Shown: positions 12,615 to 62,660, counted from the stretch's first letter. The stretch is 64,000 nucleotides of DNA from an uncultured Desulfobacter sp. (GCA_963665095.1 OY762069.1:544001-608000); one strand, 5' to 3'. Notes: generated by a model from the sequence alone, not told the origin. Numbers and translations are program-made.

Positions 12615-12749
12615 ATCTGCTCAGTATTCTTTGACAGGCAGCGGGTCAATTACCGCCGCTGCCTGCTCCCAGTCCATCGCATTTGACGTATTCCGGCCCG
12701 GCGTCAGGGCTTAAACATCATTTCACAAATATCATATGGGACAGATATT

Positions 12750-14819: not shown

Positions 14820-14839
14820 CCCCTAAAAGGAGTCCTTCA

Positions 14840-15337: not shown

Positions 15338-15383
15338 TCCGCCAGCTTATCCTCCAGTTCTGGCACACTGAAACGGCTTTGGT

Positions 15384-16229: not shown

Positions 16230-16279
16230 AAAATCACCTTTTTTGACGGCACCCTTTGTCCGCTTCTATAAACAGCAGG

Positions 16280-16326
16280 TGTAATGATTGTTAATTTTTA
16301 TTAGAAATAATGTAATGTCTGTTGCA
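16280..16326. promoter_or_regulatory. Two candidate RpiR-family operator copies in the divergent intergenic region
   Basis: TGTAATGATTGTTAAT (16280) and TGTAATGTCTGTTGCA (16311), 31 bp apart. Confidence 0.4.
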
Positions 16327-16386
16327 GGTCAAGTTTTATTTTGTTATATTCGGCCAATACAGGCCACCAGATAAAGATTACACACC

Positions 16387-17301: not shown

Positions 17302-17311
17302 GGAACAGGAA

Positions 17312-18682
17312 ATGGGAATCGGACGAACCATCCCCAGAAATTTTTTGGCAAACAACCCAAAGGCTGTGGAAGCCCACGGCATCTACATCTATGACGAACA
17401 TGGAAAAGATTATATTGACGGCTGCTCAGGTGCCCTGGTATCTAACCTGGGCCACGGCATGGATCAGATCATTGACGACATCACTTTCCAGATGAAACAT
17501 CTGGACTTTGCCCACCCCTCCCGGTGGAACCACAGCGCATGCCAGGATGCAGCAGACCAGATATGCGAACTGACCCCTGAAGGGATCAACTACTGCTGGT
17601 TTGTCTCCGGCGGTTCAGAGGCCGTGGAGTCTGCCGTTAAAATGGCCCGCCAGTATTTTGTGGAGCGGGACGGTAAAGACAGTTTAAAGCACAAGCTGAT
17701 CAGCCGGCACTGTTCCTACCATGGGGCCACCATCGGAACCATGTCCGTGGGCGGGATTTCCGGCAGAACAGAGGCGTTTCAGCCCCTGCTTAACCCTTCG
17801 GCCAAAATTCCGGCCACCTACACATACCGGAAACCGGATGGCATGACAACACAGGCGTTCAACCGGTTATGCATCTCATCCCTTGAGGAAAAAATTCTGG
17901 AGTTAGGCCCTGATCAGGTCATGGCCTTTATTGCTGAGCCCATTGTCGGATCTGCCGGAGGTGCCATTATGCCGGATGACGAATACTGGCCCGGTATCCG
18001 TAATATTTGTGATAAATACGATGTGCTGCTCATTGCCGACGAAGTCATGACAGGGTTCGGACGCACCGGTCGGGCCTTTGGTGTGGATCACTGGCAGGTG
18101 GTGCCCGATATCATTGCCTCTGCCAAGGGCATGGCGGCAGGGTATGTGCCCACCGGCGGCATCTTTGTCAAAGAGACCATTGTGGATGTGATCAGGCAGG
18201 GAAGCAGCCGCTTTATCCACGGTCACACCTACAATTCAAATCCTGTTTCCTGCCGGGCGGTTGCCAGTGTGCTGTCTTATATCAGAACCCATGACCTGAT
18301 TGAAAATGCAAGGATAAACGGGGCGCTTTTAGGAAAGGGGTTAAATGAAATTGCCCGGGAAAACCCCTATATCGGGGATGTCCGGGGGACAGGGTTCATG
18401 TGGGCCATGGAGATTGTTGCAGACAAGGAGAGCAAACAGCCTTTTGCCGTCTGTGAAAACGCAGGCGAACGGGCCTTGTCCGCCTGTCTTGATGCAGGCC
18501 TCATTGTTTACCCGGGCGGATGCCGCATCAACGGGGTGGACACCAGCATATTTCTGATCGCACCGCCGCTTGTGACCACTGCAGAAGAGGTTGATAAACT
18601 GTTAGATCGCCTGGGCACCGGGCTTAAGACCTTTTCAACCGATATGAGTGCCCTGCCGGTTCAGCGTTCCCGTGCTGTTTAA
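17312..18682 (+). CDS. Class III PLP-dependent aminotransferase
   Basis: SGGSEAVESA, SYHGAT, DEVMTGFGRTG, PDIIASAKG (PLP Lys), GHTY; start moved to ATG 17312. Confidence 0.93.
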   Translation: MGIGRTIPRNFLANNPKAVEAHGIYIYDEHGKDYIDGCSGALVSNLGHGMDQIIDDITFQMKHLDFAHPSRWNHSACQDAADQICELTPEGINYCWFVSGGSEAVESAVKMARQYFVERDGKDSLKHKLISRHCSYHGATIGTMSVGGISGRTEAFQPLLNPSAKIPATYTYRKPDGMTTQAFNRLCISSLEEKILELGPDQVMAFIAEPIVGSAGGAIMPDDEYWPGIRNICDKYDVLLIADEVMTGFGRTGRAFGVDHWQVVPDIIASAKGMAAGYVPTGGIFVKETIVDVIRQGSSRFIHGHTYNSNPVSCRAVASVLSYIRTHDLIENARINGALLGKGLNEIARENPYIGDVRGTGFMWAMEIVADKESKQPFAVCENAGERALSACLDAGLIVYPGGCRINGVDTSIFLIAPPLVTTAEEVDKLLDRLGTGLKTFSTDMSALPVQRSRAV

Positions 18683-18727
18683 GCTGAATCAGCCGGCCGT
18701 TGAACTGCCAGGTTCCTAATTTTATTT

Positions 18728-18764
18728 AGTGCCTGAACGCCCCTCCCGTGTTCGTTCAAACACT
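18728..18764. repeat. Minimal or degenerate copy of the GTGTTTG(G/A)ACG...CGTCCAAACAC hairpin repeat
   Basis: AGTGCCTGAACG...CGTTCAAACACT (10/12 inverted), same termini as the 54669 and 59267 elements. Confidence 0.45.
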
Positions 18765-18839
18765 GTTTATTTGCCGGGCCGTTTGCGGGTACACCGCAGG
18801 CGGTCCGGTTTTTTCGTTTGAATATCCGGGATATTGCTC

Positions 18840-18873
18840 TTGACAGCAATATAGTGGTTACTATAATAGTCAC
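18840..18873 (+). promoter_or_regulatory. azlC promoter with a palindromic operator over the -10
   Basis: TTGACA-16-TATAAT; GTTACTAT-A-ATAGTCAC at 18857-18873. Confidence 0.7.
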
Positions 18874-18898
18874 TAAATTGCATCTGGAGTGATAACGC

Positions 18899-19603
18899 AT
18901 GAAACAATCAGCCATCCGGGACGCCCTGAAAGCCGGTATCCCGATATTTATAGGTTATTTCCCCGCTGCGGTGGCCTTTGGCATTCTGGCCAAAACCACC
19001 GGGACCACACTGCTGGAAGCCATGTTGTTTTCCGTGGTGGTATTTGCCGGGGCCAGCCAGTTCATTGCCCTGAATCTTGTGGCCACGGGCATGGGGCCGG
19101 TGGGAATCATTCTTACCACCCTGCTGGTAAATTTCCGGCACTTTCTCATGAGTGCCTATCTGTCCACCCGGATAAAGGAAAAGGCAGTACGGTACTATTT
19201 TCCTATGGCGTTCGGGGTCACGGACGAAACCTTTTCCGTGCTTTCATTCACCCGGGGAGATCTGTCCAGGCAGTTTGTCATGGCCCTGGAACTCACCGCC
19301 TATTCCGGCTGGGTGTCAGGCACCCTGGCAGGGTATCTCATGGGCGGGTTCATGCCGGCCATTCTTACCCAGAGCATGGGCGTGGCCCTGTATGCCCTGC
19401 TCTTGGCCATTCTTATGCCCGAGCTGAAATCCTCTTTTCGTTCGCTGGTCCTAGGCCTGAGTTCCGGGCTTTTGAACTGGTTTCTGGTTACAGCAGATAT
19501 TCTGCCCAAAGGGTGGAGCATCATTGTCTGTATTCTGGTGGTGGCCTCACTGGGTGCCATGCTGACACAGGCCCCTTCCAACAAGGAGAACGTCCATGAA
19601 TAG
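18899..19603 (+). CDS. azlC: AzlC-family amino acid exporter permease
   Basis: VFAGASQF, LVNFRH, VTDETF motifs. Confidence 0.9.
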   Translation: MKQSAIRDALKAGIPIFIGYFPAAVAFGILAKTTGTTLLEAMLFSVVVFAGASQFIALNLVATGMGPVGIILTTLLVNFRHFLMSAYLSTRIKEKAVRYYFPMAFGVTDETFSVLSFTRGDLSRQFVMALELTAYSGWVSGTLAGYLMGGFMPAILTQSMGVALYALLLAILMPELKSSFRSLVLGLSSGLLNWFLVTADILPKGWSIIVCILVVASLGAMLTQAPSNKENVHE

Positions 19604-20993: not shown

Positions 20994-22583
20994 ATGAAGA
21001 TCGCTCTGGTTGCTCCGCCGTATCCGCTGGAAGAGGCACCGTCTCCGCCTCTGGGTATCTGCTATGTTGCTGCTGCCTGCCTCAGGGCAGGAGCGGATGT
21101 CAGGATTTTTGATTATATTGTCCGACAATACACCCCTGAAAATCTGGCCCGGGATATTGAGCAGTTTCAGCCCGATGTGCTGGGCACCACCGCTGTGACC
21201 ATGAATTACAAAAAAGCGGCTGACATCCTGGTCCAGGCCAAAAAAATCAAGCCGTCCCTGATCACCCTGTTCGGCGGTCCCCATGTCTCCTTTGATGTGG
21301 AAAACACATTGATGAATTATCCGGAAACTGATCTTGTGGTGATTGGCGAGGCGGAGAAAACTCTTGAAGAGCTGGTGCCCGTGCTTTTACAAAAAGCCTT
21401 GTGGCCAGCCATCCCCGGTATTGCCTTTTGCAGCAAAGGAAGTATCATCCGTACCGAACCAAGACCGCTCATTGAAAATCTTGATACGCTTCCCATGCCG
21501 GCCCGGCATCTTCTGCCCCTGTCCCGCTACCAGGCCTTAGGCTATCCCGTGAGCATCATCACCACCCGGGGATGCCCCAACAAATGCATCTTCTGTTTAG
21601 GACGTAAAATGGTGGGGTTCAAGGTCCGTCACCGGTCCATCCGGAAGGTGGTGGATGAGATTGAAAGCATCCTTGATTACGACATGCATTTTATTAATAT
21701 CGCCGACGACCTTTTTACAGTTAACAGAGCCCGGGTTCTTGAATTTTGCAACGAGGTGAAAAAACGGAACCTCTCCTTTTTCTGGAGTGTGTTTGCCAGG
21801 GTTAATACTGTGGATGCACAGATCCTCAATGCCATGAAGGCGGCTGGCTGTCATTCGGTCAGTTTCGGTATTGAATCAGGGAACAGCCAGATGCTGGCCC
21901 GGGTGCGCAAGGGCATCACCCTGGACCAGGCCCGGGCTGCGGTTGCAGCCTGCAAAGAGGCCGGCATCGTGGCCCATGGATCATTTCTGGCAGGCCTTCC
22001 CGGAGAGTCATGGGAAAGCCTGAACGATTCCAGACAGTTCAGTGAAGAGTTGAAAATTCAGTATGGATACCACTTTCTGGCACCGTTTCCCGGAACCACC
22101 ATTCGTGAAAATGCCCAGGCCTATGATATTGAAATCTTAAGCGATGACTGGGACCTGTACGATGCCGATCATGCCATTGTACAGACATCCCATCTTTCCG
22201 CACGTGATATTGAAAGTTTTGTCAACAATGCCGTGGCTCCCATCGTGAAAAGCTGGGAGGAGAAAGTGCAGCGGTTCCATGCGAAAGCGGTGAGCGGCGA
22301 AGAGTGGCTTCAGGTAGGCGGTCACTTCCGGACCCGGATGATTTTTGCCGTACTGAGCCGGGATCTGCTCGAAATCCATGGTGCCCATCCCGGGGATTTT
22401 GACCAGGCCCTTGACCGGCTTACAGCAAGAGTTGCGGAAGAATCGGAACTTGAATTCGGTTTTGTCCGGGAACAGCTTGCCGACCTGATCCGTAAAAATT
22501 ATATCCAGTCCAGGTCCCGTGACGGAAGCATCTCTTTCTTTTGGGGACATAACAATAAGACCGCTGTTTTTTTTGATTATTGA
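20994..22583 (+). CDS. B12-binding-domain radical SAM protein
   Basis: PPLGICYVAA, GGPHVS, VVIGEAE, TRGCPNKCIFC, FGIESG. Confidence 0.92.
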   Translation: MKIALVAPPYPLEEAPSPPLGICYVAAACLRAGADVRIFDYIVRQYTPENLARDIEQFQPDVLGTTAVTMNYKKAADILVQAKKIKPSLITLFGGPHVSFDVENTLMNYPETDLVVIGEAEKTLEELVPVLLQKALWPAIPGIAFCSKGSIIRTEPRPLIENLDTLPMPARHLLPLSRYQALGYPVSIITTRGCPNKCIFCLGRKMVGFKVRHRSIRKVVDEIESILDYDMHFINIADDLFTVNRARVLEFCNEVKKRNLSFFWSVFARVNTVDAQILNAMKAAGCHSVSFGIESGNSQMLARVRKGITLDQARAAVAACKEAGIVAHGSFLAGLPGESWESLNDSRQFSEELKIQYGYHFLAPFPGTTIRENAQAYDIEILSDDWDLYDADHAIVQTSHLSARDIESFVNNAVAPIVKSWEEKVQRFHAKAVSGEEWLQVGGHFRTRMIFAVLSRDLLEIHGAHPGDFDQALDRLTARVAEESELEFGFVREQLADLIRKNYIQSRSRDGSISFFWGHNNKTAVFFDY

Positions 22584-51617: not shown

Positions 51618-51754
51618 TCATTGGAAGCTGGTGGTTTGGCACAGCATTACTTGCAATACAAAACATCGTATGGTATTAGGCTCATGACCCAAAAGAGGTC
51701 ATGGGCCTACACTTGTTTTGACTCTTTTCTGTTTTAACATATTGTCTGTATAAC

Positions 51755-52372
51755 ATGGTGAAAATGAAGGACACATCAACAAAGAAAAAACTGGATGCAG
51801 CCACTAAAGCCAAGCTTGAGGAGGTAGTTAAGGCGCTTTTCAGTCAGCAGGATTTCCATCAGGTTCAGATGCGCAGTATTGCAAAGAAAACCGGCATCGG
51901 GCTTAATACCATTTACCTGCATTATGAAAGCAAGGAGCGGCTGCTCTTTTCTTTTATCGGTGACTGGATTCAGGCGCTTGATGACCGGGTGGTTGAGCAT
52001 CTGCAGGGGCTGGAGGACGTAAAGGAAAAGATCCGTAAAATAATCTGGGTCCTCCTTGATTTTTACGACAGAAATCCCGATATAGGCCAGATTCTTTTAT
52101 TTACGGTCCCTTTTAAAACCTGGAGTACGGATAAAACCTTCAGCCACAAGGATCTTTCAAGCCGGATCATTGCCATTTTAAGGGAGGGGCAGGCAAAGGG
52201 CGCCCTGGATACAACCATACCGGCTGAGTTCATGTTTGACGTCCTTTATGGTGTGATCCACCGCTCTGTTTATATCTCCTTTTTTAAAGGTGATCAGGAA
52301 CCGCTGACCTCCCGTATTGATTTGTTCCACAGTGTTTTATGGCGGGCTATCGAAGCCCGGGCCGACCTGTAA
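51755..52372 (+). CDS. TetR/AcrR-family regulator
   Basis: MRSIAKKTGIGLNTIYLHYESKERLL. Confidence 0.92.
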   Translation: MVKMKDTSTKKKLDAATKAKLEEVVKALFSQQDFHQVQMRSIAKKTGIGLNTIYLHYESKERLLFSFIGDWIQALDDRVVEHLQGLEDVKEKIRKIIWVLLDFYDRNPDIGQILLFTVPFKTWSTDKTFSHKDLSSRIIAILREGQAKGALDTTIPAEFMFDVLYGVIHRSVYISFFKGDQEPLTSRIDLFHSVLWRAIEARADL

Positions 52373-52557
52373 GATTTCTGGGGCCTGCGAATTTCGTTTG
52401 CAGGCCTTTTTCTGCATAACACCACTTCTCTTACACCCACCCCGGGTTATTCCCGATAAACATCCCGGTTTTTCTTTATTTGATGGCACGTTGATTTGAT
52501 CATGCGCCTTGTCTGGCGGTTTGGTTTTCTAATCATTAAACCAGAGTTCAACATCTG

Positions 52558-52691
52558 AAAACATCGTTTTTTATGGCGACAACTGGCGCAGCTATGATGC
52601 AGCCTGTTAAATAATGTATTTTAAGAATATATAAGGAATTTCTTGACAAACATAAAACCCTATTATATTGCTAATTAAAAAACATTGTTTT
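52558..52691 (+). promoter_or_regulatory. Operon promoter region with two palindromic operator candidates
   Basis: AAAAC-ATC-GTTTT (52558) and AAAAC-ATT-GTTTT (52679) flank TTGACA at 52643. Confidence 0.45.
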
Positions 52692-52853
52692 CCATTTATT
52701 TAAAAGGTATTATGCTCATTAAATTATATATTAAAAAACATTATTATCGATAATGAATATCTGGGTTGCCTGACGGGTCAAGTCAAGTTCCCTTAAACGC
52801 TCTTGACTCAAGGATGCCGGCCAGCGTTACCAATTACATTTAAAGGAGAAATA

Positions 52854-54665
52854 ATGGCTCAACAATTAGCAGACAGGCGGGATCAGGATTTTGTTGTCTG
52901 GGAACAGTTCGACAATGAGGCTCTTATTGAAAGCGAGCATTACGATGGATTTGATAAAAAAACCTGCCAGATGATCATCACCGAAGGCCGGAAAATAGCC
53001 ATCAAAGAGATCCTGCCCACCATTCGCGAGGGAGATCTTGAAGGCGCCCGGTTTGAGAACGGTGAGGTGTTTACGCCGAAATCCTTTAAACGGGTCTACG
53101 ATCTGTTACGGGAGAATGACTGGCAAAACCTGATGGAACCCGTGGAAATGGGCGGTCAGGGTGCGCCCCGGTTTGTGGATACCTGTGTCCGGGAATATAT
53201 GTTTACAAATTTTCCTTTGATGGCGTACCTGTGCACGGGTGCCGGCACTTCGCATATGATTTACAAGTACGGCACCCAGGAGCAGATTGACAGATATATG
53301 CCAAAGCTGATGTCTGCTCAGTGGGGCGGTACCATGCTGATGACCGAATCCCAGGCCGGGTCCGATATCGGTGCCATTGAAACGGTTGCCAAAAGAAATG
53401 ACGACGGCACGTTTTCAATCACCGGCAGCAAAATTTTTATCACCTCAGGTGAATCCGATCTGGTTGAAAATATTATCCATCCGGTTCTGGCCAGAATCGA
53501 AGGGGCACCGGCAGGCACCAAGGGCATCTCCATTTTTATTGTTCCCAAATATTTTGTAAACGACGACGGCTCCCTGGGAGACAGAAACGATGTGTGGTGT
53601 ACCGGTCTTGAACACAAACACGGCATTAAGGCAAGTGCCACATGCAGCATGACCATGGGCGCCAAAGGCGAGTGCAAAGGATTCCTTCTGGGCAAAGAAA
53701 ACCAGGGGGTCTCCATCATGTTCAATATGATGAACAGTGCCAGGATGGATACAGGGCTTCAGGCCCTGGCCTATGGGTCCGCCTGTTATCTTCTGGCGGT
53801 GAATTATGCCCGTGAGCGCGTTCAGTCCAGGGAGATCGGCCAGCCGCCAACAGCTCCGCCTGTGGCCATTATCAACCATCCGGACGTGCGCCGGAACCTG
53901 TTGTGGATGAAGTCATACATTTGCGGTTTAAGAAGCTTTTATCAGTTTACAAATCTATGTGCGGAAAAAGCCAGGCTGGCGCCATCACAAGAAGAGCGGC
54001 AGCTGAACAACGATCTCTACGAGCTGTTAACCCCCCTGATCAAAAGCTATACCGCCAACAGGGGCTATGAGGTCTGCGTCCAGGCCATGCAGGTATACGG
54101 CGGTGCCGGCTACACCCAGGATTACCTGGTGGAGCAGTTTGTCAGGGATTGTAAAATCGTCTCAATTTATGAAGGCACCTGCGGTATCCAGGCGGCCGAC
54201 CTGCTTGGCAGGAAAATTCCCATGAACAAGGCCAGGGGCTTTACGGCATTGATCAATGCCATGCTCAATACCGTGAGTGAGGCAAAGGATATTGACGGGC
54301 TGCAGGCCATGCCCGTCCAGGCTGAGGCCCAGGTGACAAAGCTTAAAGAGGTTGTCATGACCGTTGCCATGAGTGCGGCCGATCCCAAGGTGTTCAAGAC
54401 CGCCTTTGCCCACTCCTTGCCCCTGCTCGATGTTGTCGGCGATACCATCATGACCTGGATGCTGTTGTGGCGGGCGGTGACCGCCACAAAAAAGCTGGCC
54501 CTGAAACCCAAGGGAAAAGATGTGGTCTTCTATAACGGTCAGATTGTAACCGCCAGATTTTTTATTGAAACCATTTCCCCGGCCAGTATCGGTAAAATGA
54601 AGGGGATACAGTCATTGAGCACGGCGGCCATGGATATGGAGGACGATGCCTACGGCAGTCTGTAG
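52854..54665 (+). CDS. Acyl-CoA dehydrogenase (~600-aa type with C-terminal extension)
   Basis: MLMTESQAGSD, GSKIFIT, EHKHGIKAS, QVYGGAGY, IYEGT; AAGGAG RBS before MAQQL. Confidence 0.93.
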   Translation: MAQQLADRRDQDFVVWEQFDNEALIESEHYDGFDKKTCQMIITEGRKIAIKEILPTIREGDLEGARFENGEVFTPKSFKRVYDLLRENDWQNLMEPVEMGGQGAPRFVDTCVREYMFTNFPLMAYLCTGAGTSHMIYKYGTQEQIDRYMPKLMSAQWGGTMLMTESQAGSDIGAIETVAKRNDDGTFSITGSKIFITSGESDLVENIIHPVLARIEGAPAGTKGISIFIVPKYFVNDDGSLGDRNDVWCTGLEHKHGIKASATCSMTMGAKGECKGFLLGKENQGVSIMFNMMNSARMDTGLQALAYGSACYLLAVNYARERVQSREIGQPPTAPPVAIINHPDVRRNLLWMKSYICGLRSFYQFTNLCAEKARLAPSQEERQLNNDLYELLTPLIKSYTANRGYEVCVQAMQVYGGAGYTQDYLVEQFVRDCKIVSIYEGTCGIQAADLLGRKIPMNKARGFTALINAMLNTVSEAKDIDGLQAMPVQAEAQVTKLKEVVMTVAMSAADPKVFKTAFAHSLPLLDVVGDTIMTWMLLWRAVTATKKLALKPKGKDVVFYNGQIVTARFFIETISPASIGKMKGIQSLSTAAMDMEDDAYGSL

Positions 54666-54668
54666 TTA

Positions 54669-54856
54669 GTGTTAGTACGGCTCGAAGAGGAGCTTCAGCT
54701 CACAAAGCCACCCACCTGCGGCGTTGCTGCACAAAGCTGCCAAAACATATAATCGGGTCTCACGTACTGGAGTACGCTTGCGGTTGCAGCTTTGCTTGCG
54801 CCTTGTATCTGGGCAACTTTGTGGGCATGCGCCCCTCTTGCGAGCCGTCCAAACAC
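54669..54856. repeat. 188-bp long-hairpin intergenic repeat (REP/MITE-like)
   Basis: GTGTTAGTACGGCTCG/CGAGCCGTCCAAACAC termini; internal CTGCGGCGTTG, CTCAC and GCCTTGTATCTGGGCAACT shared with the 59267 copy. Confidence 0.8.
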
Positions 54857-54874
54857 CAAACACGGGGTTTTCCA

Positions 54875-54907
54875 AGATGCCAGATTTTAGATGCCAGATT
54901 TTAGATG
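54875..54907 (+). repeat. 14-bp tandem repeat (2.4 copies)
   Basis: AGATGCCAGATTTT x2 plus AGATG. Confidence 0.85.
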
Positions 54908-54981
54908 TCGAATGCACATTATGTTCCTGATGTATTTACGTGTTAACGCCAATAATTTTTTTAAAAAAGGAGTGTTACATC

Positions 54982-56676
54982 ATGCCAATACCTGAAAAAA
55001 TCCTGGATCGTGCAAACAAACTTTTAGCCGATGTCGTTCCAAACTGTGCCGACTACATTGCCCAATATGCGGAAGAAAAACCGGAAACCACCGCATTTAT
55101 CATGTATGCCACAGGCAAACAGGTCACCTGGCAGCAATTTAATGATGCCGTGGACATCTATGCCGCAGCACTGCTTTCCAAAGGATTAAAAAAAGGCGAT
55201 ATCGTTGGCACGATTCTCACGCTCTCAGAGGAACACATCTTTCTGATGTATGCCTGTTTCCGGATCGGCGTGATTATTGCCCCTATGGATATCAGGCTCA
55301 AGGAGACGGAAGTTCTGTACTCCATAGGAAAGATCAATCCAAAGGCTGTCTTTTTCCTCGGAAAAACACCTGTCACTGATTTCAGGCCCATGATCGCCGA
55401 TGTCATGAAAGACGTGCCTTCCGTCAGCCTGTGGGTGCAGATTCAAAAAAGTGATGACAGCGTGATTGACGGGGCTGAAAGCCTCAAAGATTTTCTGGGT
55501 GATCCGACACCCGATGCCATCGCGGCAGTTAAAAACGCCAATGCCCTGACTGAAAAACGAGACCCCTGCCTGATTACCTTTACAACAGGTTCCACAGGTT
55601 CTCCGAAGGCCGCACTTCTCTGCCATGAAAACATTTTGATGCAGAATATCTCATTTGCATGCCTCTCCATGATTGACTCAGATACGGTTTTTCTGGATAA
55701 CCTGCCGCCTTCCCATGTGGCCTGCACCACAGAGGTCATGTACACCACATTTTTTGCCGGGGGAACGCTGGTGATCATGGATTTTGATCCCAAACAGTGC
55801 TTTGAGGCCATTGAGAAACACAAGATTAATCATATCTTGGGCATTCCGGCCATGTTCAGCATGATGTGGCAGTTCCCCGACTATGACAAGTACGATAAAT
55901 CCTCACTGAACGTGGCTGTATTCGGCGGCCAGCAGGTGCAGCGGCCCTGGGTGGAGAAACTGCAGGCCATGGTTCCCAATATTTGCACAGGCCTTGGCAT
56001 CACCGAATGTGCCGGTGCCACCACCAGCAACTGTATTCCGTGTACCGTGGATGATGTCATGGACGGCATCGGTCTGTGCATGCCGCACTGCCCACTCACC
56101 GTACGGGAGCCCATGAATTTTGACGGAACTGCCGGGGTGGAAATGGCTCCCGGTGAGATCGGTGAGATCTGCTTTGAGGGCCCACAGGTATTTCTCGGGT
56201 ATCTGAATGACCCAAAGAAAACGGCTGAGACCATTTCAAAGGAAGGCATTTTGTACACCGGGGATGTGGGAAGCTATGATGAAAAGGGGCTTCATCTGGC
56301 AGGTCGCAGGAAATTCATCATAAAACCCAAGGGCTTTCAGGTATTTCCCGGGGATGTGGAGGAGCATATCGCCCAGGCCCTGAAGGGACGGGTCGGGACT
56401 GTGGCGGTGGTGGGTGTCGAGCACGAGATATTTACCGACGGTGTCATGGCCTTTGTCGAGGTGCCGGAAGACCAGAATGTGACGGCTGAAGATGTCTACA
56501 ACGCCTGCCGGAGTATCTCCTCCTATTCGCGTCCCTCCCATGTGGAGATAATTAAAGTAGGAGAGTTTCCCCTTACCCGGACGGCAAAGATAGATTATAT
56601 GCGCCTGAAAGCACTGGCCCAGGACGTGGTGGATAAACTCAGAGCTGAAGGAAAATGGGACAGAGCGCAGATGTAA
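54982..56676 (+). CDS. Acyl-CoA synthetase (class I adenylate-forming)
   Basis: FTTGSTGSPKA, GLGITE, GEIC..GPQVFLGY, YTGDVG, GRRK; AAGGAG RBS before MPIPEK. Confidence 0.92.
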   Translation: MPIPEKILDRANKLLADVVPNCADYIAQYAEEKPETTAFIMYATGKQVTWQQFNDAVDIYAAALLSKGLKKGDIVGTILTLSEEHIFLMYACFRIGVIIAPMDIRLKETEVLYSIGKINPKAVFFLGKTPVTDFRPMIADVMKDVPSVSLWVQIQKSDDSVIDGAESLKDFLGDPTPDAIAAVKNANALTEKRDPCLITFTTGSTGSPKAALLCHENILMQNISFACLSMIDSDTVFLDNLPPSHVACTTEVMYTTFFAGGTLVIMDFDPKQCFEAIEKHKINHILGIPAMFSMMWQFPDYDKYDKSSLNVAVFGGQQVQRPWVEKLQAMVPNICTGLGITECAGATTSNCIPCTVDDVMDGIGLCMPHCPLTVREPMNFDGTAGVEMAPGEIGEICFEGPQVFLGYLNDPKKTAETISKEGILYTGDVGSYDEKGLHLAGRRKFIIKPKGFQVFPGDVEEHIAQALKGRVGTVAVVGVEHEIFTDGVMAFVEVPEDQNVTAEDVYNACRSISSYSRPSHVEIIKVGEFPLTRTAKIDYMRLKALAQDVVDKLRAEGKWDRAQM

Positions 56677-56705
56677 CGCGGCAGGTAAAAAAGCGGTTTC
56701 ATGTC

Positions 56706-56745
56706 CCGGCAACTAAACGGTCCGGCAACTAAATGGCCCGGCAAC
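56706..56745 (+). repeat. 16-bp-period direct repeat just upstream of the GRE RBS
   Basis: CCGGCAAC(TAAA) at 56706, 56722 and 56738. Confidence 0.85.
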
Positions 56746-56764
56746 AGATAAAGGAGATATAGGC

Positions 56765-59266
56765 ATGTTACAGACAGCAGAGCACAAATATTCAATAAAA
56801 CCCTCCCCAAAGGTGGAAAAACTTCGGGCCACATACATCGAAGCGGCCAAGCGTGAGGAGCCCTCCTACAACATCTGCTCTGACCGGGCCATTACGCGGG
56901 TGATGAAAGAGACAGAAGGTGAACCCATGGCCCTGAGACGGGGTAAAGCCTTTGCCGCTGTCCTCAAAGAGGTGCCGGTGGACATTTTCCCTGATGAACC
57001 GTTTGTGGGCTGGGTGGGCGGTGATCCGCTCTCCGCACAGATCAGCGCTGAACAGCGGGGGGCAAGAATGGAAACCGAACTGGATTATTTCAAACTCAGT
57101 AATGAAGAAGACAGACAAATTATCCGGGATGAAATCATCCCTTACTGGAAGGGCGACGGGAACTGGAAACGCCACTGGTTTGCCCGGGCCTATCAGATGC
57201 TGCCGGAGGAGACGCGGTATCTGCTGTATGGCGACCCTGACCCTGAATTGGCAAAAATCGGGATCCTGACAAATTCCAATGCACCGGCCCAGCCCCAGAT
57301 CAAGGTGCCTGCCCAGCCCAAACGGCTTGGCATGGGGATTATCATAGAGATCATGAGCCGTCATCATATCGGTCACAGCAGTTTCGGCTATGAGAAAGTG
57401 TTGAAAAAGGGGTTCCTGGGTATCCGGCAGGATGCGGAAGAACGCCTGGCGCGCATTGATGAAAACGACCCCGGGGAGATGAAGAAAAAGCCCTTCCTTA
57501 AGGGTGTCATTCTTGCCATGGACGCGGCAGCCGGCATTGGCAAACGGTTTGCAGAAAAAGCCCGCAAGATGGCTGAAGCGCAGAAGGACCCGGTAAGAAA
57601 ACAGGAACTGCTGGTGATTGCCGATACCTGCGAACAGGTCCCGGCAAACCCTGCCACAACTTTCCGGGAGGCCCTGCAGTCGGTCTGGTTCACCCAGATC
57701 ATGAACTGGTGGGAGACCCCTCTTGTTCTGGCCGTATCACCGGGGAAGGTGGACCAGTATCTTTATCCCTATTTTAAAGCGGATATGGCAGCCGGCCGCC
57801 TGTCAAAAGAGGAGGCCCAGGAACTCATCGACTGCTGGCTGATGCGGTTTGCGCAAGGGGTGGCCCCCTATGTGCCGCAATCCGGTGCCGCCTTTCACCT
57901 GGATGTGGGGGGATTGAAAGCGGACGGGAGCGATGCCACCAATGAACTCTCCTTCATGTTCATCGAAGGGATGATGCATACCCGGATGATTGAACCGAAC
58001 ATGGGGGTTTTAGTTCACAGCAAGACACCGGACGATTTTCTGATCAAGGCATGTGAGCTCTGTTCCCTGGGGCTGGGACATCCCATGTTCTTAAACAATG
58101 ATGTCATGGTTGAAAATATGCTCTCCCGGGGAACATTGGGCGGGCCTCCGGTTCCCATTGAACTGGCCCGCACCAGCGGCTGCATCGGATGCAACGAGCC
58201 CCATGTCACCAATTATGATTCAGAGTTTAATATCGGGGCGGTTTTTCAGATGCCCACAGCCCTGGAGCTGGCGCTTTTCAATGGTGTAAGCCGGACCTTT
58301 AAAACAAAAATGGGGCTTGAAACCGGTGATGCCAGCCAGTTTGAGACCTTTGAAGCGCTTAAGGCCGCCTTTGAAAAACAGTTAAAGTTTATCATCACCC
58401 AGTGCGGCATTGCCATCAGGACCTTTGAAACCGCTATGGCAGAGGTGTATCCCACGGTATACCAGTCCGCCTTGATCGAAGACTGCATTGAAAATGGCAT
58501 CGCCCGTGAAGCGGGCGGGGCCCGGTTTAACTTTGGTCCGGCTGTCGCCACCCTGGGTGCTACGGATGTGGGCAACTCTCTGGCCGCCGTTAAAAAACTG
58601 GTATTTGATGAAAAGCAGATGAGCATGGGCCAGTTGCTGGAAATGCTGGACAGTAACTTCAAGGACCAGGATGTCATGCGCCAGCGGCTGCTGAATGCAC
58701 CGAAATTCGGTAATGATGATGACTATGTGGATCAGGAAGTGGCATGGGTTATGGATACATTTAACAAAGAGGTCATCAAACATAAAAATACAAGGGGCGG
58801 ATATCTGCTGCCCTATCAGAATCCTTTGTCCGGATATGTGGGAATGGGCCGCCTCATGGGGGCACTTCCTTCAGGCCGGAAAGCCGGAGAACCCCTTTCC
58901 GACGGGATATCACCCACCTGTGGCTCAGATGTCAATGGCCCTACTGCGGTGCTGAACTCAGCCGGCAAACTGGATAATGCCTCCATTTTCTTAGGCCAGA
59001 CACTGAATATGCGCCTGGACGGCGAGATGTTTGGCTCGGATGAGGGGGTTTACCGGATGGCAGCACTTTTGCGGACATTTGTAGATCTTAAGATCCATCA
59101 CATCCAGTTTAACCTGGTCTCCTCTGATACACTAAGGGCTGCCCAGGAAAATCCTGCGGAGTACCAGGACCTGATGGTGAGGGTTGCAGGCTATGTGGCC
59201 TATTTTGTCAACCTGAGCAGGGGGCTGCAGGATAGTATTATCCAGCGTACTGAACACCGCATTTAA
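56765..59266 (+). CDS. Glycyl radical enzyme of unassigned class (PFL2/eliminase-like)
   Basis: RVAGY (Gly809), GCIGCNEP (Cys476), EQVPANPA, PKFGNDD, GRKAGEPLSDGISP, HIQFN. Confidence 0.95.
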   Translation: MLQTAEHKYSIKPSPKVEKLRATYIEAAKREEPSYNICSDRAITRVMKETEGEPMALRRGKAFAAVLKEVPVDIFPDEPFVGWVGGDPLSAQISAEQRGARMETELDYFKLSNEEDRQIIRDEIIPYWKGDGNWKRHWFARAYQMLPEETRYLLYGDPDPELAKIGILTNSNAPAQPQIKVPAQPKRLGMGIIIEIMSRHHIGHSSFGYEKVLKKGFLGIRQDAEERLARIDENDPGEMKKKPFLKGVILAMDAAAGIGKRFAEKARKMAEAQKDPVRKQELLVIADTCEQVPANPATTFREALQSVWFTQIMNWWETPLVLAVSPGKVDQYLYPYFKADMAAGRLSKEEAQELIDCWLMRFAQGVAPYVPQSGAAFHLDVGGLKADGSDATNELSFMFIEGMMHTRMIEPNMGVLVHSKTPDDFLIKACELCSLGLGHPMFLNNDVMVENMLSRGTLGGPPVPIELARTSGCIGCNEPHVTNYDSEFNIGAVFQMPTALELALFNGVSRTFKTKMGLETGDASQFETFEALKAAFEKQLKFIITQCGIAIRTFETAMAEVYPTVYQSALIEDCIENGIAREAGGARFNFGPAVATLGATDVGNSLAAVKKLVFDEKQMSMGQLLEMLDSNFKDQDVMRQRLLNAPKFGNDDDYVDQEVAWVMDTFNKEVIKHKNTRGGYLLPYQNPLSGYVGMGRLMGALPSGRKAGEPLSDGISPTCGSDVNGPTAVLNSAGKLDNASIFLGQTLNMRLDGEMFGSDEGVYRMAALLRTFVDLKIHHIQFNLVSSDTLRAAQENPAEYQDLMVRVAGYVAYFVNLSRGLQDSIIQRTEHRI

Positions 59267-59392
59267 GTGTTTGAACGGGCAGTCACCCCCTCTGCGGCGT
59301 TGCAGGGTAATTTGCAGTCCTCACAACCAAAAGGTTGCTCCGGTTGCAAATTACCCTGGGCCTTGCATCTGGGCAACTGTTCGTCCAAACAC
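59267..59392. repeat. 126-bp long-hairpin intergenic repeat (same family as 54669)
   Basis: GTGTTTGAACGGGCAGT/ACTGTTCGTCCAAACAC termini; perfect 14-bp inner stem CAGGGTAATTTGCA/TGCAAATTACCCTG. Confidence 0.85.
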
Positions 59393-59426
59393 CGCCATTG
59401 AGCCATAAACCATAATGTAAAGGAAC

Positions 59427-60332
59427 GTGACTATCAAACCGGAACAGGGGTTAGTTTATAATATTGAAAAATTTGCCGTGAATGATGGGCCCGGCATCAG
59501 GACACTGGTTTTTATGAAGGGATGCCCCTTAAGATGTCTGTGGTGCTCATCCCCCCAGACCCAGCAGCATTCCATAGAGATGTTGTATGATCCTGACCTG
59601 TGTCAGCAATGCCTGACCTGCCGGAATATCTGCGAAAATAACGCCATAGAATTTACCACAGATCATCAGTTGAATTTTAAGGTCCGGCAATGTGATATGT
59701 GCAAACGTTGTGTTGATGCCTGTCCGGAAAAAGCACTTGAAATGGCAGGCAGATATATGACGGTGGATGAACTTTTCAGCCAGGTCGTCAAGGACGCTTC
59801 TTTTTTCAGAAGGTCCCAGGGGGGGGTAACGGTGGGGGGCGGTGAGCCCACCATGCAGCATGGATTTGTGGCCGCATTTCTGAAAAAATGTAAATCCCGG
59901 TATATCCATACTGCCATTGAAACCTGCGGCCACTGCACCTGGGATAAAATGGCGGCAATTCTTGAATACACGGACATGGTATTTATGGATATCAAGCATC
60001 TTAATGATGAGCAGCATCAAAGGATAACAGGCGTCTCCAATCGTCTTATCCTGGAAAATGCACGCAAAATTGCCGAGATAAAACCATTGACCATCCGGAT
60101 TCCCATTGTCCCGGGTTGTAATGATTCAGAACAGAATATCAGGGACACGGCCCGATTCGCCGCTCAGCTGGGAGAAAAACTGCAGAAAATCGAACTGCTG
60201 CCCTACCATGAACTGGGGGTGGACACCTACAGACGGCTGGGCATGACCTATCCGCTTAAAGGCATAAAACCGCCGGACCCAGAAACCATGAACCGGCTGC
60301 AGGAGATCGCTGATTTCTGCTTTACTGAATAA
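59427..60332 (+). CDS. Glycyl-radical enzyme activating protein with ferredoxin insert
   Basis: DGPGIRT, GCPLRCLWC, CQQCLTCRNIC, CDMCKRCVDAC, GGGEP, LLPYH. Confidence 0.95.
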   Translation: MTIKPEQGLVYNIEKFAVNDGPGIRTLVFMKGCPLRCLWCSSPQTQQHSIEMLYDPDLCQQCLTCRNICENNAIEFTTDHQLNFKVRQCDMCKRCVDACPEKALEMAGRYMTVDELFSQVVKDASFFRRSQGGVTVGGGEPTMQHGFVAAFLKKCKSRYIHTAIETCGHCTWDKMAAILEYTDMVFMDIKHLNDEQHQRITGVSNRLILENARKIAEIKPLTIRIPIVPGCNDSEQNIRDTARFAAQLGEKLQKIELLPYHELGVDTYRRLGMTYPLKGIKPPDPETMNRLQEIADFCFTE

Positions 60333-60491
60333 ATGCAAAAAATCAATTCCCTTGCCTGTGCCTTCGGGGCGGCCACATTTTGTGCTGTCGCCCTGTCATA
60401 CAATAGCAGCCATGGGCTGACCTGGTGTATCAACACCCAGACTTTTGACGGATACTATGACAAGCAGATGATATCAATACAAAGGAGCTGA
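60333..60491 (+). CDS. Possible 52-aa ORF filling the activase-thiolase gap
   Basis: ATG directly after the activase TAA; ends 2 nt before the thiolase ATG; no clear RBS. Confidence 0.3.
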   Translation: MQKINSLACAFGAATFCAVALSYNSSHGLTWCINTQTFDGYYDKQMISIQRS

Positions 60492-60493
60492 AA

Positions 60494-61702
60494 ATGAGTA
60501 CAAAAGAAGTTGTATTTGTGGCGGGAGTCCGCACGGCATTTGGCCGGATGGGCGGTTCCATACGAGACGTTTATGCTACCAAACTTGCCGGGATTACCAT
60601 TGAGGGATTGCTGGACAAAACAAATATTCATGAAAAGGCCCACGTGGATTGCGTGTTCCTGGGCTCTGCCACCCATTGTTCCGTGGCCCTGAATCCGGCC
60701 CGGTTTGCAGTGCTCTCCACCCGGCTGCCCAAAACCACCTCTGCCTCCTATGTGGAGATGCAGTGCGGGTCCGCCATAGATTCCATCAACCATGCCGCCT
60801 GGAAAATCCTGGCCGGCCAGGCAGACATCATCATTGCCGGCGGTATGGAATCCTACAGCCAGATGGCTTTTAAGGTGCCTACCTCCACCCCTCCCTACCG
60901 GATGAACCCGCCCATGCCCGTTATACCGACGCTGTCACCTTTGGAAGAGGAGTGTATCGGCATGGGGCTGACCGCGGAAAATCTGGCTGAAAAATACGAA
61001 ATTCCCAGGGAAGCCTCAGACGAGTTTGCCTATAACAGCCAGATGAGAGCCAAGGCTGCCATGGAGGCCGGCTATTTTGATGAGGAGATCATTCCGGTGC
61101 CATTTGCCGCTACCCGCAAGACCCCGGCCTGGCAGTTTGACAAGGATGAACATCCCCGGCCTGAATCCACCCTTGAGGGGATGGCCAAGCTGCCGCCGGT
61201 GTTCAAAAAGGGGGGAACGGTGACGGCCGGCAACTCCTCGGGCCAGAACGACGGGGCTGCCTTTGTCCTGATGATGAGTGCGGAAAAGGCCGGTGAGCTG
61301 GGATATACCCCCATGGCCAGGTGGCTCTCCGGGGCAGATGTGGGCTGCGATCCCAGGATCATGGGGATCGGTCCGGCCGCAGCCATGCCCATGGCGGTCA
61401 GCCGGGCAGGATTGAGAATGTCGAATATGGATGTGATGGAGTGCAACGAGGCCTTTGCCGTCCAGAACCTGGCCGTGATCAAGGATATTGAACAAAATAC
61501 CGGGGAAACCATCGACATGGCCAAGTGGAATCCTTACGGCGGCGCCATTGCCTTTGGCCATCCCAACGGGGCCAGCGGCGCCAGGATCTGTATGTTCGCC
61601 ATGCGCCATATGATACGCAACGGCGGACGGTATGGCATCTTTGCCTCCTGCTGCGGCGGGGGCCTGGGCGTGGCCACGGTCATTGAGAATCTGCAAAGAT
61701 AA
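60494..61702 (+). CDS. Thiolase (acetyl-CoA C-acyltransferase)
   Basis: QCGS, VTAGNSS, NEAFA, GHPNGASG, CCGGG. Confidence 0.95.
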   Translation: MSTKEVVFVAGVRTAFGRMGGSIRDVYATKLAGITIEGLLDKTNIHEKAHVDCVFLGSATHCSVALNPARFAVLSTRLPKTTSASYVEMQCGSAIDSINHAAWKILAGQADIIIAGGMESYSQMAFKVPTSTPPYRMNPPMPVIPTLSPLEEECIGMGLTAENLAEKYEIPREASDEFAYNSQMRAKAAMEAGYFDEEIIPVPFAATRKTPAWQFDKDEHPRPESTLEGMAKLPPVFKKGGTVTAGNSSGQNDGAAFVLMMSAEKAGELGYTPMARWLSGADVGCDPRIMGIGPAAAMPMAVSRAGLRMSNMDVMECNEAFAVQNLAVIKDIEQNTGETIDMAKWNPYGGAIAFGHPNGASGARICMFAMRHMIRNGGRYGIFASCCGGGLGVATVIENLQR

Positions 61703-61824
61703 TTTTTTTATCGTTTTTTTATTGGACATGCCCGGATAATCCGGCGCTAATCTTATGGATTGCAGTGACCCGGACCCGGTCCTGATCTAACGGGGACGGT
61801 CACCGTTATTAGGAGAACAAACCC

Positions 61825-62604
61825 ATGAATTTGAACAAGATGATATTTGAAAAAAAAGATGGGCTGGGGTGGGCCCGGTTCAACCGGCCTGAAAAACTCA
61901 ATGCCCTGAACAGTGAGGTATTTGAGGATATCGGCACCATTGTCCAGGCCTGTGAGAGGGATGACGAGGTAAAAGTTCTGGTTATTACAGGGTCGGACAA
62001 GGTGTTTGCCGCCGGTGCCGACATTGACACCATGGCAAATGGCAGTATCAGGGATGCCCTTGCCCTGACAGACCAGTGCATGTTTGTCACCGAGCGCCTG
62101 GCAGACCTGGCCAAACCCACCATCGCCGCCATCTCAGGCTATGCTCTGGGCGGCGGTCTTGAGGTGGCGCTCAGCTGTGACTTCAGAATCGGGGATGACA
62201 CGGCCATGGTGGGACTGCCTGAAATCACCCTGGGAATCATTCCGGGTGGTGGGGGCACCCAGCGTCTGCCCCGACTGATCAACCCCAGCAAAGCACTGGA
62301 AATGATTATGACAGGAGAGATCGTAGACGCCCAGAAGGCCCTTGACTTGGGGATACTCAATCACAAGGCGGCAAAAGGAGAACTGGAAGCTGCCGTGACA
62401 ACCCTTGCCAAAAAACTGATGGCCAAACCGGCCATGGGGATCCGTGCCGCGAAATCCGCTGTGCGTAAAGGGTTGAACACCTCTTTGAAAGACGGCATTA
62501 TCATTGAACAGCACCTCTTCGGCATGTTGTTTGGTACCCTTGACCAGAAAGAAGGCATGGCGGCATTTCTTGAAAAACGGCGGCCTGAATTCAAGGGCTG
62601 CTGA
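61825..62604 (+). CDS. Enoyl-CoA hydratase/crotonase
   Basis: FAAGADI, ALGGGLEVA, LPEITLGIIPGGGGTQRLPR (both catalytic Glu). Confidence 0.94.
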   Translation: MNLNKMIFEKKDGLGWARFNRPEKLNALNSEVFEDIGTIVQACERDDEVKVLVITGSDKVFAAGADIDTMANGSIRDALALTDQCMFVTERLADLAKPTIAAISGYALGGGLEVALSCDFRIGDDTAMVGLPEITLGIIPGGGGTQRLPRLINPSKALEMIMTGEIVDAQKALDLGILNHKAAKGELEAAVTTLAKKLMAKPAMGIRAAKSAVRKGLNTSLKDGIIIEQHLFGMLFGTLDQKEGMAAFLEKRRPEFKGC

Positions 62605-62629
62605 AAGCGCCTGACACCTCAAAAAAAGC

Positions 62630-62660
62630 AAAACAGGGCTGTTTCCGGCCCTGTTTTATT
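62630..62660 (+). terminator. Intrinsic terminator ending the GRE/beta-oxidation operon
   Basis: AAAACAGGGC/GCCCTGTTTT stem plus T-rich tail. Confidence 0.75.

Follow-up and report, generated by a model that had tools for sequence, protein, structure and literature searches.

Which reaction does a glycyl radical enzyme (GRE) catalyse when it is encoded among genes of beta-oxidation? The question is raised by a gene block (52854..62660) in a window of 64,000 nt, the whole stretch of DNA analysed here, from an uncultured Desulfobacter sp. (GCA_963665095.1 OY762069.1:544001-608000). An earlier note on this DNA had described an unassigned GRE in an operon devoid of 3-hydroxyacyl-CoA dehydrogenase (HADH) and had proposed a radical elimination that unblocks a substituted acid or its CoA ester, possibly supplying a 3-oxoacyl compound directly to the thiolase.

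Composition and origin of the gene block

The gene set listed in that note is indeed present, with all seven genes on the + strand and matched by Pfam/NCBIfam profiles. A terminator-like hairpin of 13 pairs (51677..51709, +) closes an upstream chemoreceptor gene and is followed by a TetR-family regulator (51755..52372), an acyl-CoA dehydrogenase of 603 aa with YEG at 439-441 (52854..54665), an AMP-forming CoA ligase of 564 aa (54982..56676), the GRE of 833 aa (56765..59266), a GRE activating enzyme of 301 aa, which is a radical SAM protein with a ferredoxin insert (59427..60332), a thiolase of 402 aa with Cys90, His356 and SCCGG at 385 (60494..61702) and an enoyl-CoA hydratase of 259 aa in which both catalytic glutamates, Glu113 and Glu133, are present (61825..62604). 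A second terminator-like hairpin, of 12 pairs with a T-rich tail on both strands, ends the series (62630..62657). The regulator gene lies 481 bp upstream of the others and the intervening spacer is AT-rich, with four copies of an 18-bp motif, two per strand, forming a candidate operator array (52556..52749); tetR is therefore probably transcribed separately from the six downstream genes. The latter are separated by spacers of 88-316 bp on the same strand and form a single putative transcript. A matrix built from the four spacer sites revealed no similar motif cluster at the sister cassette described below. TetR paralogues with 33-38% identity are encoded in the genome, two of them adjoining CoA ligases.

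Two spacers of the block are interrupted by dispersed repeats, one present in about 48 genomic copies (54663..54872), the other a long hairpin between the GRE and activase genes (59267..59393; z -6.5, about 46 copies). None of the five small + strand spacer ORFs matches Pfam, and two of them coincide in part with a repeat that occurs 46-48 times in the genome, in agreement with the statement that small subunits of the BssB/BssC type are not evident; relatives of a 52-aa spacer ORF are absent from the fetched loci. Shell proteins and aldehyde or alcohol dehydrogenases are also missing from the block, as previously noticed.

The reported lack of an HADH was confirmed, none of the 30 other ORFs scanned in the window encoding this enzyme. 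The complete beta-oxidation set (dehydrogenase, hydratase, HADH, thiolase) is thus not found in the block, and HADH occurs instead in a sister cassette with the order tetR, 4-hydroxybutyryl-CoA dehydratase, dehydrogenase, thiolase, HADH, hydratase, whose dehydratase matches the 4-hydroxybutyryl-CoA dehydratase structure 1U8V (E 4.5e-206). The window thiolase is 92% identical to that of the sister cassette (G000:C1:4182175-4183380) and the hydratase 86%, with 38% of fourfold sites differing between the two copies. The window pair is a recent duplicate of the thiolase-HADH-hydratase block elsewhere in the genome. A contig of run X9 spans the thiolase-hydratase junction. The 122-bp spacer between the two genes (61703..61824) occupies the position of the 289-aa HADH of the sister cassette, and no HADH remnant could be detected in it (236 of 500 shuffles score as well). 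The dehydrogenase (54% identical to that of the sister cassette), the regulator and the ligase are not orthologues of their sister-cassette counterparts. The ligase belongs to a family common in Syntrophales/Smithellaceae and accompanies the GRE in its 96%, 87% and 86% relatives, apparently on the same contigs to judge from their matching lengths.

Class and active site of the glycyl radical enzyme

The protein combines a PFL-like domain (PF02901, 570 bits) with a C-terminal glycyl radical domain (PF01228, 95 bits), whose RVAG motif at 806-809 contains the presumptive radical site Gly809, and the adjacent activase, with its SAM motif and two ferredoxin motifs, scores 353 bits against TIGR02494 (cut-off 174); it thus belongs to the PFL-like GRE superfamily. 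In keeping with the label unassigned in the earlier note, it fits no curated class. Compared with the NCBIfam families HypD, CutC, HpfG, HpsG, IAD and HPAD, it stays below every cut-off (best score/cut-off pairs 547/1000, 526/1100, 495/1050, 448/1000, 407/1100 and 304/1150), and the same holds for all nine relatives scanned. Formate lyases (PFL, TdcE) were rejected, as the GRE has no Cys-Cys and scores 98 bits against TIGR01255, versus a cut-off of 994; the position of Cys473 is occupied by alanine in 33 of 38 core sequences.

The view that the enzyme differs from formate lyases and from fumarate-adding enzymes and carries the loop of eliminases was also supported. The GCNE motif at 475-478 contains Cys476-Asn-Glu478, with both Cys and Glu conserved in 38/38 core sequences. 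According to section 5.6 of PMC13450708, Cys-X-Glu on the Cys loop is a class feature of GRE 1,2-eliminases, and that source also mentions it in eliminases that cleave C-N or C-S bonds, in isomerases and in certain decarboxylases. His204, Cys476 and Glu478 align with His164, Cys433 and Glu435 of glycerol dehydratase, the catalytic roles of which are given in section 5.6.1 of the same review. The three residues are invariant in the 38 core and the 55 extended-clade sequences. His204 is also found in 26 of 28 distant GREs and is therefore not specific to diols. At the positions of His281, Tyr339, Asp447 and Tyr640, which we take to be the substrate-pocket residues of glycerol dehydratase, the GRE has Leu322, Ala376, Ile490 and Asn686, these equivalences being drawn from an alignment that is gapped in the Tyr339 region. 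The non-catalytic pocket positions thus appear to be changed, mostly to small or greasy residues. The clade has a signature of its own (Q97, H201, H378, D380, H480, Y684, N686). In C-S eliminases (IslA, IseG, HpsG), two arginines and a glutamine anchor the sulfonate; the strand 684-688 of the GRE is devoid of Arg.

The clade, its neighbours and the possible substrates

The GRE clade is rare and distinct, with members in Desulfobacterales, Desulfomonile, Syntrophales, Syntrophomonadales and Lokiarchaeia; the GRE was found in none of 24 congeners and in 1 of 160 other genomes of the family. Nineteen dereplicated core loci (GRE at least 57% identical, at least 5.5 kb of flank) were compared for neighbours within 6 kb. 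In support of the earlier note, acyl-CoA genes were found in 14 of them versus 2 of 10 distant GRE loci, leaving five core loci without acyl genes nearby. CoA ligases are present in 6/19 core loci, epoxide-hydrolase-like genes in 4/19, FabK/NMO-family flavoproteins in 3/19 and thiolases in 2/19; ligase, hydrolase or thiolase genes occur at 0/10 distant loci. The neighbour classes were picked after the loci had been seen and the loci are kin. Within these limits, Fisher tests after dereplication at 97% give p = 0.016 when any acyl gene is counted and 0.068 when ligases are; at 85% the values are 0.070 and 0.014, respectively. Such genes are also plentiful in the hosts, which degrade fatty acids; the present genome has 29 matches to ligases, 15 to dehydrogenases and 10 to thiolases.

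The ligases of the core loci fall into four groups with 20-30% mutual identity and the hydrolases into three with 25-32%, so both gene types were recruited repeatedly. In one case, the gene directly behind the GRE encodes a hydrolase matching the epoxide hydrolase EphA (5CW2, E 6.5e-71), and genes for an acyl-CoA dehydrogenase and an SDR come next. Epoxide hydrolases produce vicinal diols. For a second hydrolase type, dehalogenase-like structures score equally with epoxide hydrolases. At loci L107 and L109, a thiolase directly behind the GRE is only 35% similar to that of the window; thiolases joined the clade three times, from different branches.

Because relatives adjoin unrelated CoA ligases, epoxide-hydrolase-like genes and a different thiolase, we tentatively favour a hydrophobic vicinal diol as the substrate, which the GRE would dehydrate to a ketone or aldehyde for degradation by the neighbouring beta-oxidation enzymes, with HADH provided from elsewhere. 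Dihydroxy fatty acids and long-chain 1,2-diols are the candidates, either free or as CoA esters. This reading also draws on the thiolase subfamily of the window, which clusters with 4-hydroxybutyryl-CoA dehydratase-family genes (6/15 loci) and APH-family kinases (4/15), gene types that serve 4-hydroxy acids according to PMC11342911. The activase would generate the Gly809 radical, and a Cys476 thiyl radical would abstract the hydrogen at the carbinol carbon. By analogy with glycerol dehydratase, Glu478 would deprotonate the hydroxyl of that carbinol while His204 protonates the adjacent departing hydroxyl, the alkyl chain being housed in the roomier pocket. The product could then pass to the CoA ligase, dehydrogenase, hydratase and thiolase, HADH likely coming from another genomic locus.

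It is possible, albeit unlikely, that the block is a loose assembly in which a small mobile unit made up of GRE and ligase acts on an unrelated substrate (an amino alcohol, an arylacetate or other), the beta-oxidation genes having accumulated around it in a region of lipid catabolism with no part in its pathway. The chimeric make-up of the block, its repeat-bearing spacers, the patchy occurrence of the GRE and the five core loci without acyl genes are all consistent with this. However, the 96% relative keeps a frameshifted dehydrogenase, the ligase, the GRE and the hydratase, apparently on one contig, the 86% lineage has independently collected thiolase, dehydrogenase and HADH-hydratase, and unrelated ligases, thiolases and hydrolases were recruited again and again.

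An ether lyase or ring-opening isomerase, acting for instance on alkyl glyceryl ethers or hydroxylated cyclic ethers, seems quite unlikely. Hydrogen would be taken from a carbinol beside the ether and an alkoxide expelled, the alcohol then being oxidised and entering beta-oxidation via the ligase. Identical catalytic residues would suffice, and YbiW and PflD, described in PMC13450708 as cleaving C-O ether bonds by such radical chemistry, provide a precedent. SDRs, a PQQ dehydrogenase with cytochrome, molybdenum enzymes, F420-type oxidoreductases and ThDP enzymes are encoded next to GREs of the clade, a set compatible with products that are alcohols, aldehydes or hydroxyketones. Against this, a lipid-ether gene was identified near none of the loci, alcohol and aldehyde dehydrogenases are absent from the window block, and a diol accounts better for the epoxide-hydrolase-like neighbours. 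A gene for processing an aldehyde or ketone is absent from the block as well, which counts against the diol reading.

The missing HADH and comparison with known systems

The sharpest form of the earlier proposal is a special case of diol dehydration on CoA esters that would bypass HADH: the ligase forms a 4-hydroxyacyl-CoA, dehydrogenase and hydratase convert it to 3,4-dihydroxyacyl-CoA, the GRE eliminates the 4-hydroxyl to yield 3-oxoacyl-CoA and the thiolase cleaves it. Every enzyme of the block would be employed, and the missing genes are exactly the dehydratase and HADH that a GRE would replace; from 4-hydroxyacyl-CoA to 3-oxoacyl-CoA, dehydratase, hydratase and HADH would be redox-equivalent to dehydrogenase, hydratase and GRE. 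The three separate acquisitions of thiolases also fit, as do dehydratase-family genes in the vicinity of two GREs of greater distance (L039, L049).

Nevertheless, the thiolase subfamily of the window is found without adjacent HADH in 3 of 15 GRE-free loci, and no CoA ester is among the substrates listed for eliminases and isomerases in the respective sections of the 2026 review (PMC13450708). HADH is matched at full length nine times in the genome, once in the parent cassette; HADH-hydratase fusions are apparently on the same contigs as the 86%-identical GRE, given their shared lengths (4/4 full-length members of this GRE cluster); and the dehydrogenase-thiolase-hydratase set occurs in 0/19 more distant core loci, though their active-site signature is the same. 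Since, in addition, the sister block keeps its HADH, the gap is a lineage-specific loss from a duplicated gene block and not proof of a bypass. What stands of the radical-elimination pathway is an unassigned eliminase-type GRE beside acyl-CoA genes, whereas the absence of HADH is weakened as an argument; direct supply of 3-oxoacyl-CoA is conceivable and is favoured by the redox bookkeeping relative to the sister cassette, but should not be taken as the default. The bypass is very unlikely in our view. It would make this enzyme the first eliminase of the glycyl radical type with a CoA thioester as substrate, and by replacing both 4-hydroxyacyl-CoA dehydratase and HADH it would open a third way of degrading 4-hydroxy fatty acids. 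The wider clade would then enable syntrophs, Asgard archaea and the sulfate reducers of sediments to break down epoxy- and dihydroxy-lipids anoxically, a scenario that we consider just as improbable.

A fumarate-adding enzyme akin to alkyl- or benzylsuccinate synthase, with a succinylated product degraded by the adjacent genes, is suggested by a beta-oxidation context resembling bbs/ass clusters and by the ferredoxin insert of the activase, but is extremely improbable given the invariant Cys-X-Glu, the lower scores of solved synthases (4PKC 258, 9O8U 315 bits) versus eliminases (456-467), Gly491 at what is presumably the position of the fumarate-binding Arg, the lack of small subunits among the spacer ORFs and an activase score of 223 bits versus a BssD cut-off of 496. 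It could also draw on Asgard GREs 29-33% identical to AssA, labelled as such enzymes on this low identity in PMC8163825. Dehydration of hydrophobic diols would offer an alternative to the label of hydrocarbon activation, sometimes put on Asgard GREs, and would suggest a route for the breakdown of oxidised plant or membrane lipids in anoxic sediments and digesters. To our knowledge, the substrates of characterised GRE eliminases are small and polar, and the enzymes mostly come from gut bacteria. A clade that is associated with CoA ligases, thiolases and epoxide hydrolases, and whose own invariant active-site signature is common to sulfate reducers, Lokiarchaeia and syntrophs that oxidise fatty acids, would carry this chemistry over to lipid-like substrates, and its cultured carriers, Desulfomonile tiedjei (GRE 76%) and Desulfatitalea tepidiphila (64%), make it experimentally accessible.

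Among known systems, benzyl- and alkylsuccinate synthases with bbs genes likewise place a GRE and its activase next to CoA-dependent beta-oxidation genes, but the window GRE differs by its Cys-X-Glu loop, the absence of small subunits and far lower similarity. The route via the 4-hydroxybutyryl-CoA dehydratase AbfD (1U8V) and the LvaA/LvaC or ACAD10/11 route for 4-hydroxy acids solve the same type of problem, an oxygen blocking beta-oxidation, and the window thiolase and hydratase descend from a cassette with an AbfD homologue; instead of GREs, these routes employ flavin/iron-sulfur or kinase chemistry, which acts on CoA esters before HADH takes over. The isomerases YbiW, PflD and HplG, which cleave C-O or C-N beside a carbinol, share Cys-X-Glu, yet score lower (316-340 bits), and the GRE has no sugar-phosphate or proline catabolic genes nearby. 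HypD, HpfG/HpsG, CutC and IslA also have this loop (NCBIfam scores 448-547 bits), whereas the GRE reaches about half of the curated cut-offs (1000-1100), lacks Arg in strand 684-688 and has other neighbours. The B12-independent glycerol dehydratase (PDB 1R8W/1R9D) and propanediol dehydratase (5I2A), against which the GRE scores 455 and 410 bits, share with it the ten-stranded PFL-like family, the Gly loop, Cys-X-Glu and the lack of a small subunit, and their His164 and Glu435 pair is matched in the alignment by His204 and Glu478. The GRE differs from them by Leu/Ala/Ile/Asn at the His281/Tyr339/Asp447/Tyr640 positions, by the added invariant H201, H378 and D380, by two inserts, one rich in proline near 155-190 and one with the sequence RGTLGG ahead of the Cys loop, and by its acyl-CoA neighbours, where these dehydratases have alcohol dehydrogenase or microcompartment genes.

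The gene block and its sister cassette

ORF calls, Pfam and NCBIfam searches and a hairpin scan recovered the seven genes, order and strand claimed in the earlier note: tetR, acyl-CoA dehydrogenase, CoA ligase, glycyl radical enzyme (GRE; 56765-59266), activase, thiolase and enoyl-CoA hydratase on the plus strand, closed by a hairpin. The 833-aa GRE carries GCNE (475-478) and RVAG (806-809), and nowhere in its sequence are two cysteines adjacent. The activase contains a SAM motif and two ferredoxin motifs, and catalytic motifs are kept in the thiolase, hydratase and dehydrogenase. The block indeed lacks genes for 3-hydroxyacyl-CoA dehydrogenase (HADH), shell proteins and aldehyde/alcohol dehydrogenase, and none of these was detected among the 30 other window ORFs scanned. 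We tentatively favour a reading, whose substrate class, reaction and order of steps we infer, in which the GRE would be a C-O eliminase acting on a hydrophobic vicinal diol; the resulting oxo compound would then be CoA-activated and beta-oxidised, with the HADH step served in trans.

Five small ORFs in the spacers of the block have no Pfam match and are not credible as subunits; one of them, of 52 aa, is not conserved in the loci fetched from other genomes. The 481-bp gap between tetR and the dehydrogenase gene is AT-rich and carries four copies of one motif. A matrix built from these sites gave 124 matches; they include the four sites themselves and two pairs of weak hits, and none lies at the sister cassette (a related gene block elsewhere in the genome), so that shared regulation is not supported. 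Scans of the window for sigma-70 promoters (21 vs 14.4) and terminators (19 vs 16.6) were near chance overall. Two block spacers carry dispersed, MITE- or REP-like repeats with about 46-48 genomic copies each (59267-59393 and 54663-54872); they are related, measure about 120-200 bp and have matches genus-wide, and the copy between GRE and activase (59267-59393) folds into a long hairpin (z -6.5). Elsewhere in the window, a TRAP transporter, a beta-keto acid cleavage enzyme, an RpiR regulator, a class III aminotransferase and AzlC (11574-19603) form a possible amino-acid catabolism cluster unrelated to the GRE block, and a B12-binding radical SAM protein lies behind a TrmB-type regulator (20994-22583).

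The sister cassette (G000:C1:4187836-4176791 in the window's genome, also L103:6792-17837) has the order tetR, 4-hydroxybutyryl-CoA dehydratase homologue (matching 1U8V, E 4.5e-206), dehydrogenase, thiolase, HADH, hydratase, MaoC, iron-sulfur protein and a CoA ligase split in two frames. Its dehydrogenase, thiolase and hydratase are 54%, 92% and 86% identical to those of the window, and 38% of the fourfold sites differ in the thiolase and likewise in the hydratase. In a tree of 39 thiolases, the window protein is sister to the cassette paralogue (100/99). This relationship indicates that the window thiolase and hydratase are duplicates from a block with HADH between them, the HADH gene having since been dropped. 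No HADH remnant was found in the 122-bp thiolase-hydratase spacer, and contigs from four sequencing runs show the same junction in a close strain (run X9) alone. The window's genome contains nine full-length HADH matches.

Among 15 other loci of the thiolase subfamily, HADH occurs in the same run at 11 and probably at one more, where it is masked by the ORF filter; three are without it. Dehydratase-family genes are present in six of these 15 loci and APH-family kinases in four; the route for 4-hydroxy acids is described in the available portion of PMC11342911 as a kinase plus dehydrogenase-family enzymes. Related clusters in the family have as many as three genes of the dehydratase family, along with APH kinases, SDRs and carboxyltransferases; together with the sister cassette they suggest that sulfate reducers have an as yet undescribed pathway for 4-hydroxy/4-oxo acids.

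For relatives with GREs of 76-96% identity (D. tiedjei included), linkage is read from contigs of equal size only. On this basis, the partners of the 96% GRE would be a frameshifted dehydrogenase, a ligase and a hydratase, and that of the 87% GRE the ligase. The 86% GRE would be linked to a ligase, a dehydrogenase, a fused HADH-hydratase and a thiolase from a different branch. Among the matches listed, none was a thiolase of the window's subfamily for the 55,801- or 71,715-bp contigs. The missing HADH pointed out earlier thus holds for the block itself but not as a conserved trait.

Distribution and neighbours of the GRE clade

GRE homologues range from 96% identity down, through Desulfomonile tiedjei (76%; AFM24839.1) and Syntrophomonadales, Syntrophales, Desulfatitalea tepidiphila and Lokiarchaeia (64-71%), and the series ends at about 50%. 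With a profile built from 31 close members, four 50%-cluster representatives scored 816-1046 bits and the next 677. A tree of 71 sequences, made by a quick method and unsure in its long outgroup branches, places the window GRE in a 40-row group (SH-aLRT 99) within a larger clade. This clade is rare: it occurs in none of 24 congeners, one of 160 other genomes of the family, 2/400 genomes of the order, 9/201 of the class around a Syntrophaceae genome and 2/125 of that around a Syntrophomonadales genome. A phylum-wide sample at 1e-200 contained the window GRE in none of 400 other genomes. Such patchy presence suggests that the GRE may have spread by lateral transfer. No paper on the clade was found in the literature covered, which excludes most subscription journals and supplements. 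The window's genome encodes six further GREs, 29-34% identical to the window's (G000:C1, near 340100, 461300, 2874500, 3009000, 5863400 and 6326000): one has a HypD-like Cys loop and adjoins a peptide ABC transporter, another, about 1040 aa long, is next to an aldehyde dehydrogenase-like gene, and one without adjacent activase adjoins CoA-transferase-like genes.

Neighbours were counted after merging GREs at 97% identity, at loci flanked by 5.5 kb or more; shorter loci were dropped. Within 6 kb of the GRE, the 19 core loci (at least 57% identity) have a CoA ligase in six cases, an epoxide-hydrolase-like gene in four, a FabK/NMO-family flavoprotein in three and a thiolase in two. Some acyl gene is near the GRE in 14 and none in five; the corresponding count is 7/21 at 43-57% identity, where many Lokiarchaeia loci have F420-type and molybdenum enzymes, and 2/10 at distant loci, none of which has a ligase. 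Fisher p values for core vs distant counts are 0.014-0.070, for counts that involve kin and gene classes picked after inspecting the loci. The complete dehydrogenase-thiolase-hydratase set is found at none of the 19 core loci, and the neighbouring CoA ligases fall into four groups (20-30% mutual identity) and the epoxide-hydrolase-like proteins into three (25-32%). That the genes of the block are loosely assembled around an unrelated reaction seems unlikely to us.

At L104, the hydrolase directly 3' of the GRE matches EphA (E 6.5e-71) and is followed by an acyl-CoA dehydrogenase and an SDR; the type at L108 and L023 is ambiguous by structure matches between epoxide hydrolase and dehalogenase. 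In two Syntrophia-class genomes (L107:3802-12572 and L109:3606-12542), a thiolase unrelated to the window's lies directly 3' of the GRE, in one run with a sigma-54 activator, a three-subunit molybdopterin oxidoreductase (DmsC anchor) and the activase. At L004:5203-19583, the surroundings of a clade GRE include another GRE, four binding proteins of the branched-chain type, a PQQ dehydrogenase and a cytochrome c. At L026 and L051 (contig LAZR01000216.1), four to five GRE paralogues stand in tandem; they are 47-56% identical to the window's and vary in Cys-loop and pocket residues. In three records from two genomes, clade GREs are split by frameshifts, genuine or assembly-derived (L002:9880-12379, L023:9974-12426, L086:10797-13255). 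Distant GREs at L011 and L013 have Cys-Met-Arg in place of Cys-X-Glu, the latter adjoining FabK/NMO and acyl-CoA genes.

Active site and family of the enzyme

His480 and Tyr684 define a core group of 38 among 121 aligned GRE sequences, in which Gln97, His201, His204, His378, Asp380, Cys476, Glu478, Gly491, Asn686 and Leu688 are invariant. These ten residues suggest that the core GREs share one function; His204 is also present in 26 of 28 distant GREs and is therefore weak evidence on its own. In the available part of PMC13450708, Cys-X-Glu is listed for all GRE eliminases and isomerases, with no fatty-acid or CoA-ester substrate named for them. We regard it as quite unlikely that the window enzyme is an ether lyase or isomerase. 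A special case of the diol reading, from 4-hydroxyacyl-CoA via 4-hydroxyenoyl-CoA and 3,4-dihydroxyacyl-CoA to 3-oxoacyl-CoA, would employ every gene of the block, would be redox-equivalent to the dehydratase-hydratase-HADH route of the sister cassette, and would render redundant precisely the two genes that the block lacks. As a function of the clade it is opposed by the HADH fusion linked with the 86% GRE and by distant members without the dehydrogenase-thiolase-hydratase set, and we consider this bypass distinctly improbable.

As the earlier note had it, the GRE is unassigned: it scores below every NCBIfam cut-off (at best 556/678, with a broad PFL2/dehydratase model; with HpsG, HypD, CutC and HpfG its scores reach roughly half the required value), as do nine of nine relatives. 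ESM Atlas returned only generic PFL-like clusters. Motifs and scores led us to reject a formate lyase and also a fumarate-adding enzyme, which is scarcely credible; in the portions available, PMC8163825 shows how fumarate-addition labels arose, and PMC12583861 concerns a true synthase, not this clade.

The best-matching solved structures for the enzyme are CutC, glycerol dehydratase and HypD (446-467 bits), against 258-315 bits for succinate synthases. Sequence alignment places Leu322, Ala376, Ile490 and Asn686 at the positions of His281, Tyr339, Asp447 and Tyr640 of glycerol dehydratase, which we take to be its substrate-pocket residues. In the same alignment, His204, Cys476 and Glu478 correspond to glycerol dehydratase His164, Cys433 and Glu435, of which Glu435 is the base and His164 the acid (PMC13450708, available part). 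The window enzyme is a member of the GRE superfamily that belongs to no characterised family and would work like a GRE 1,2-eliminase.
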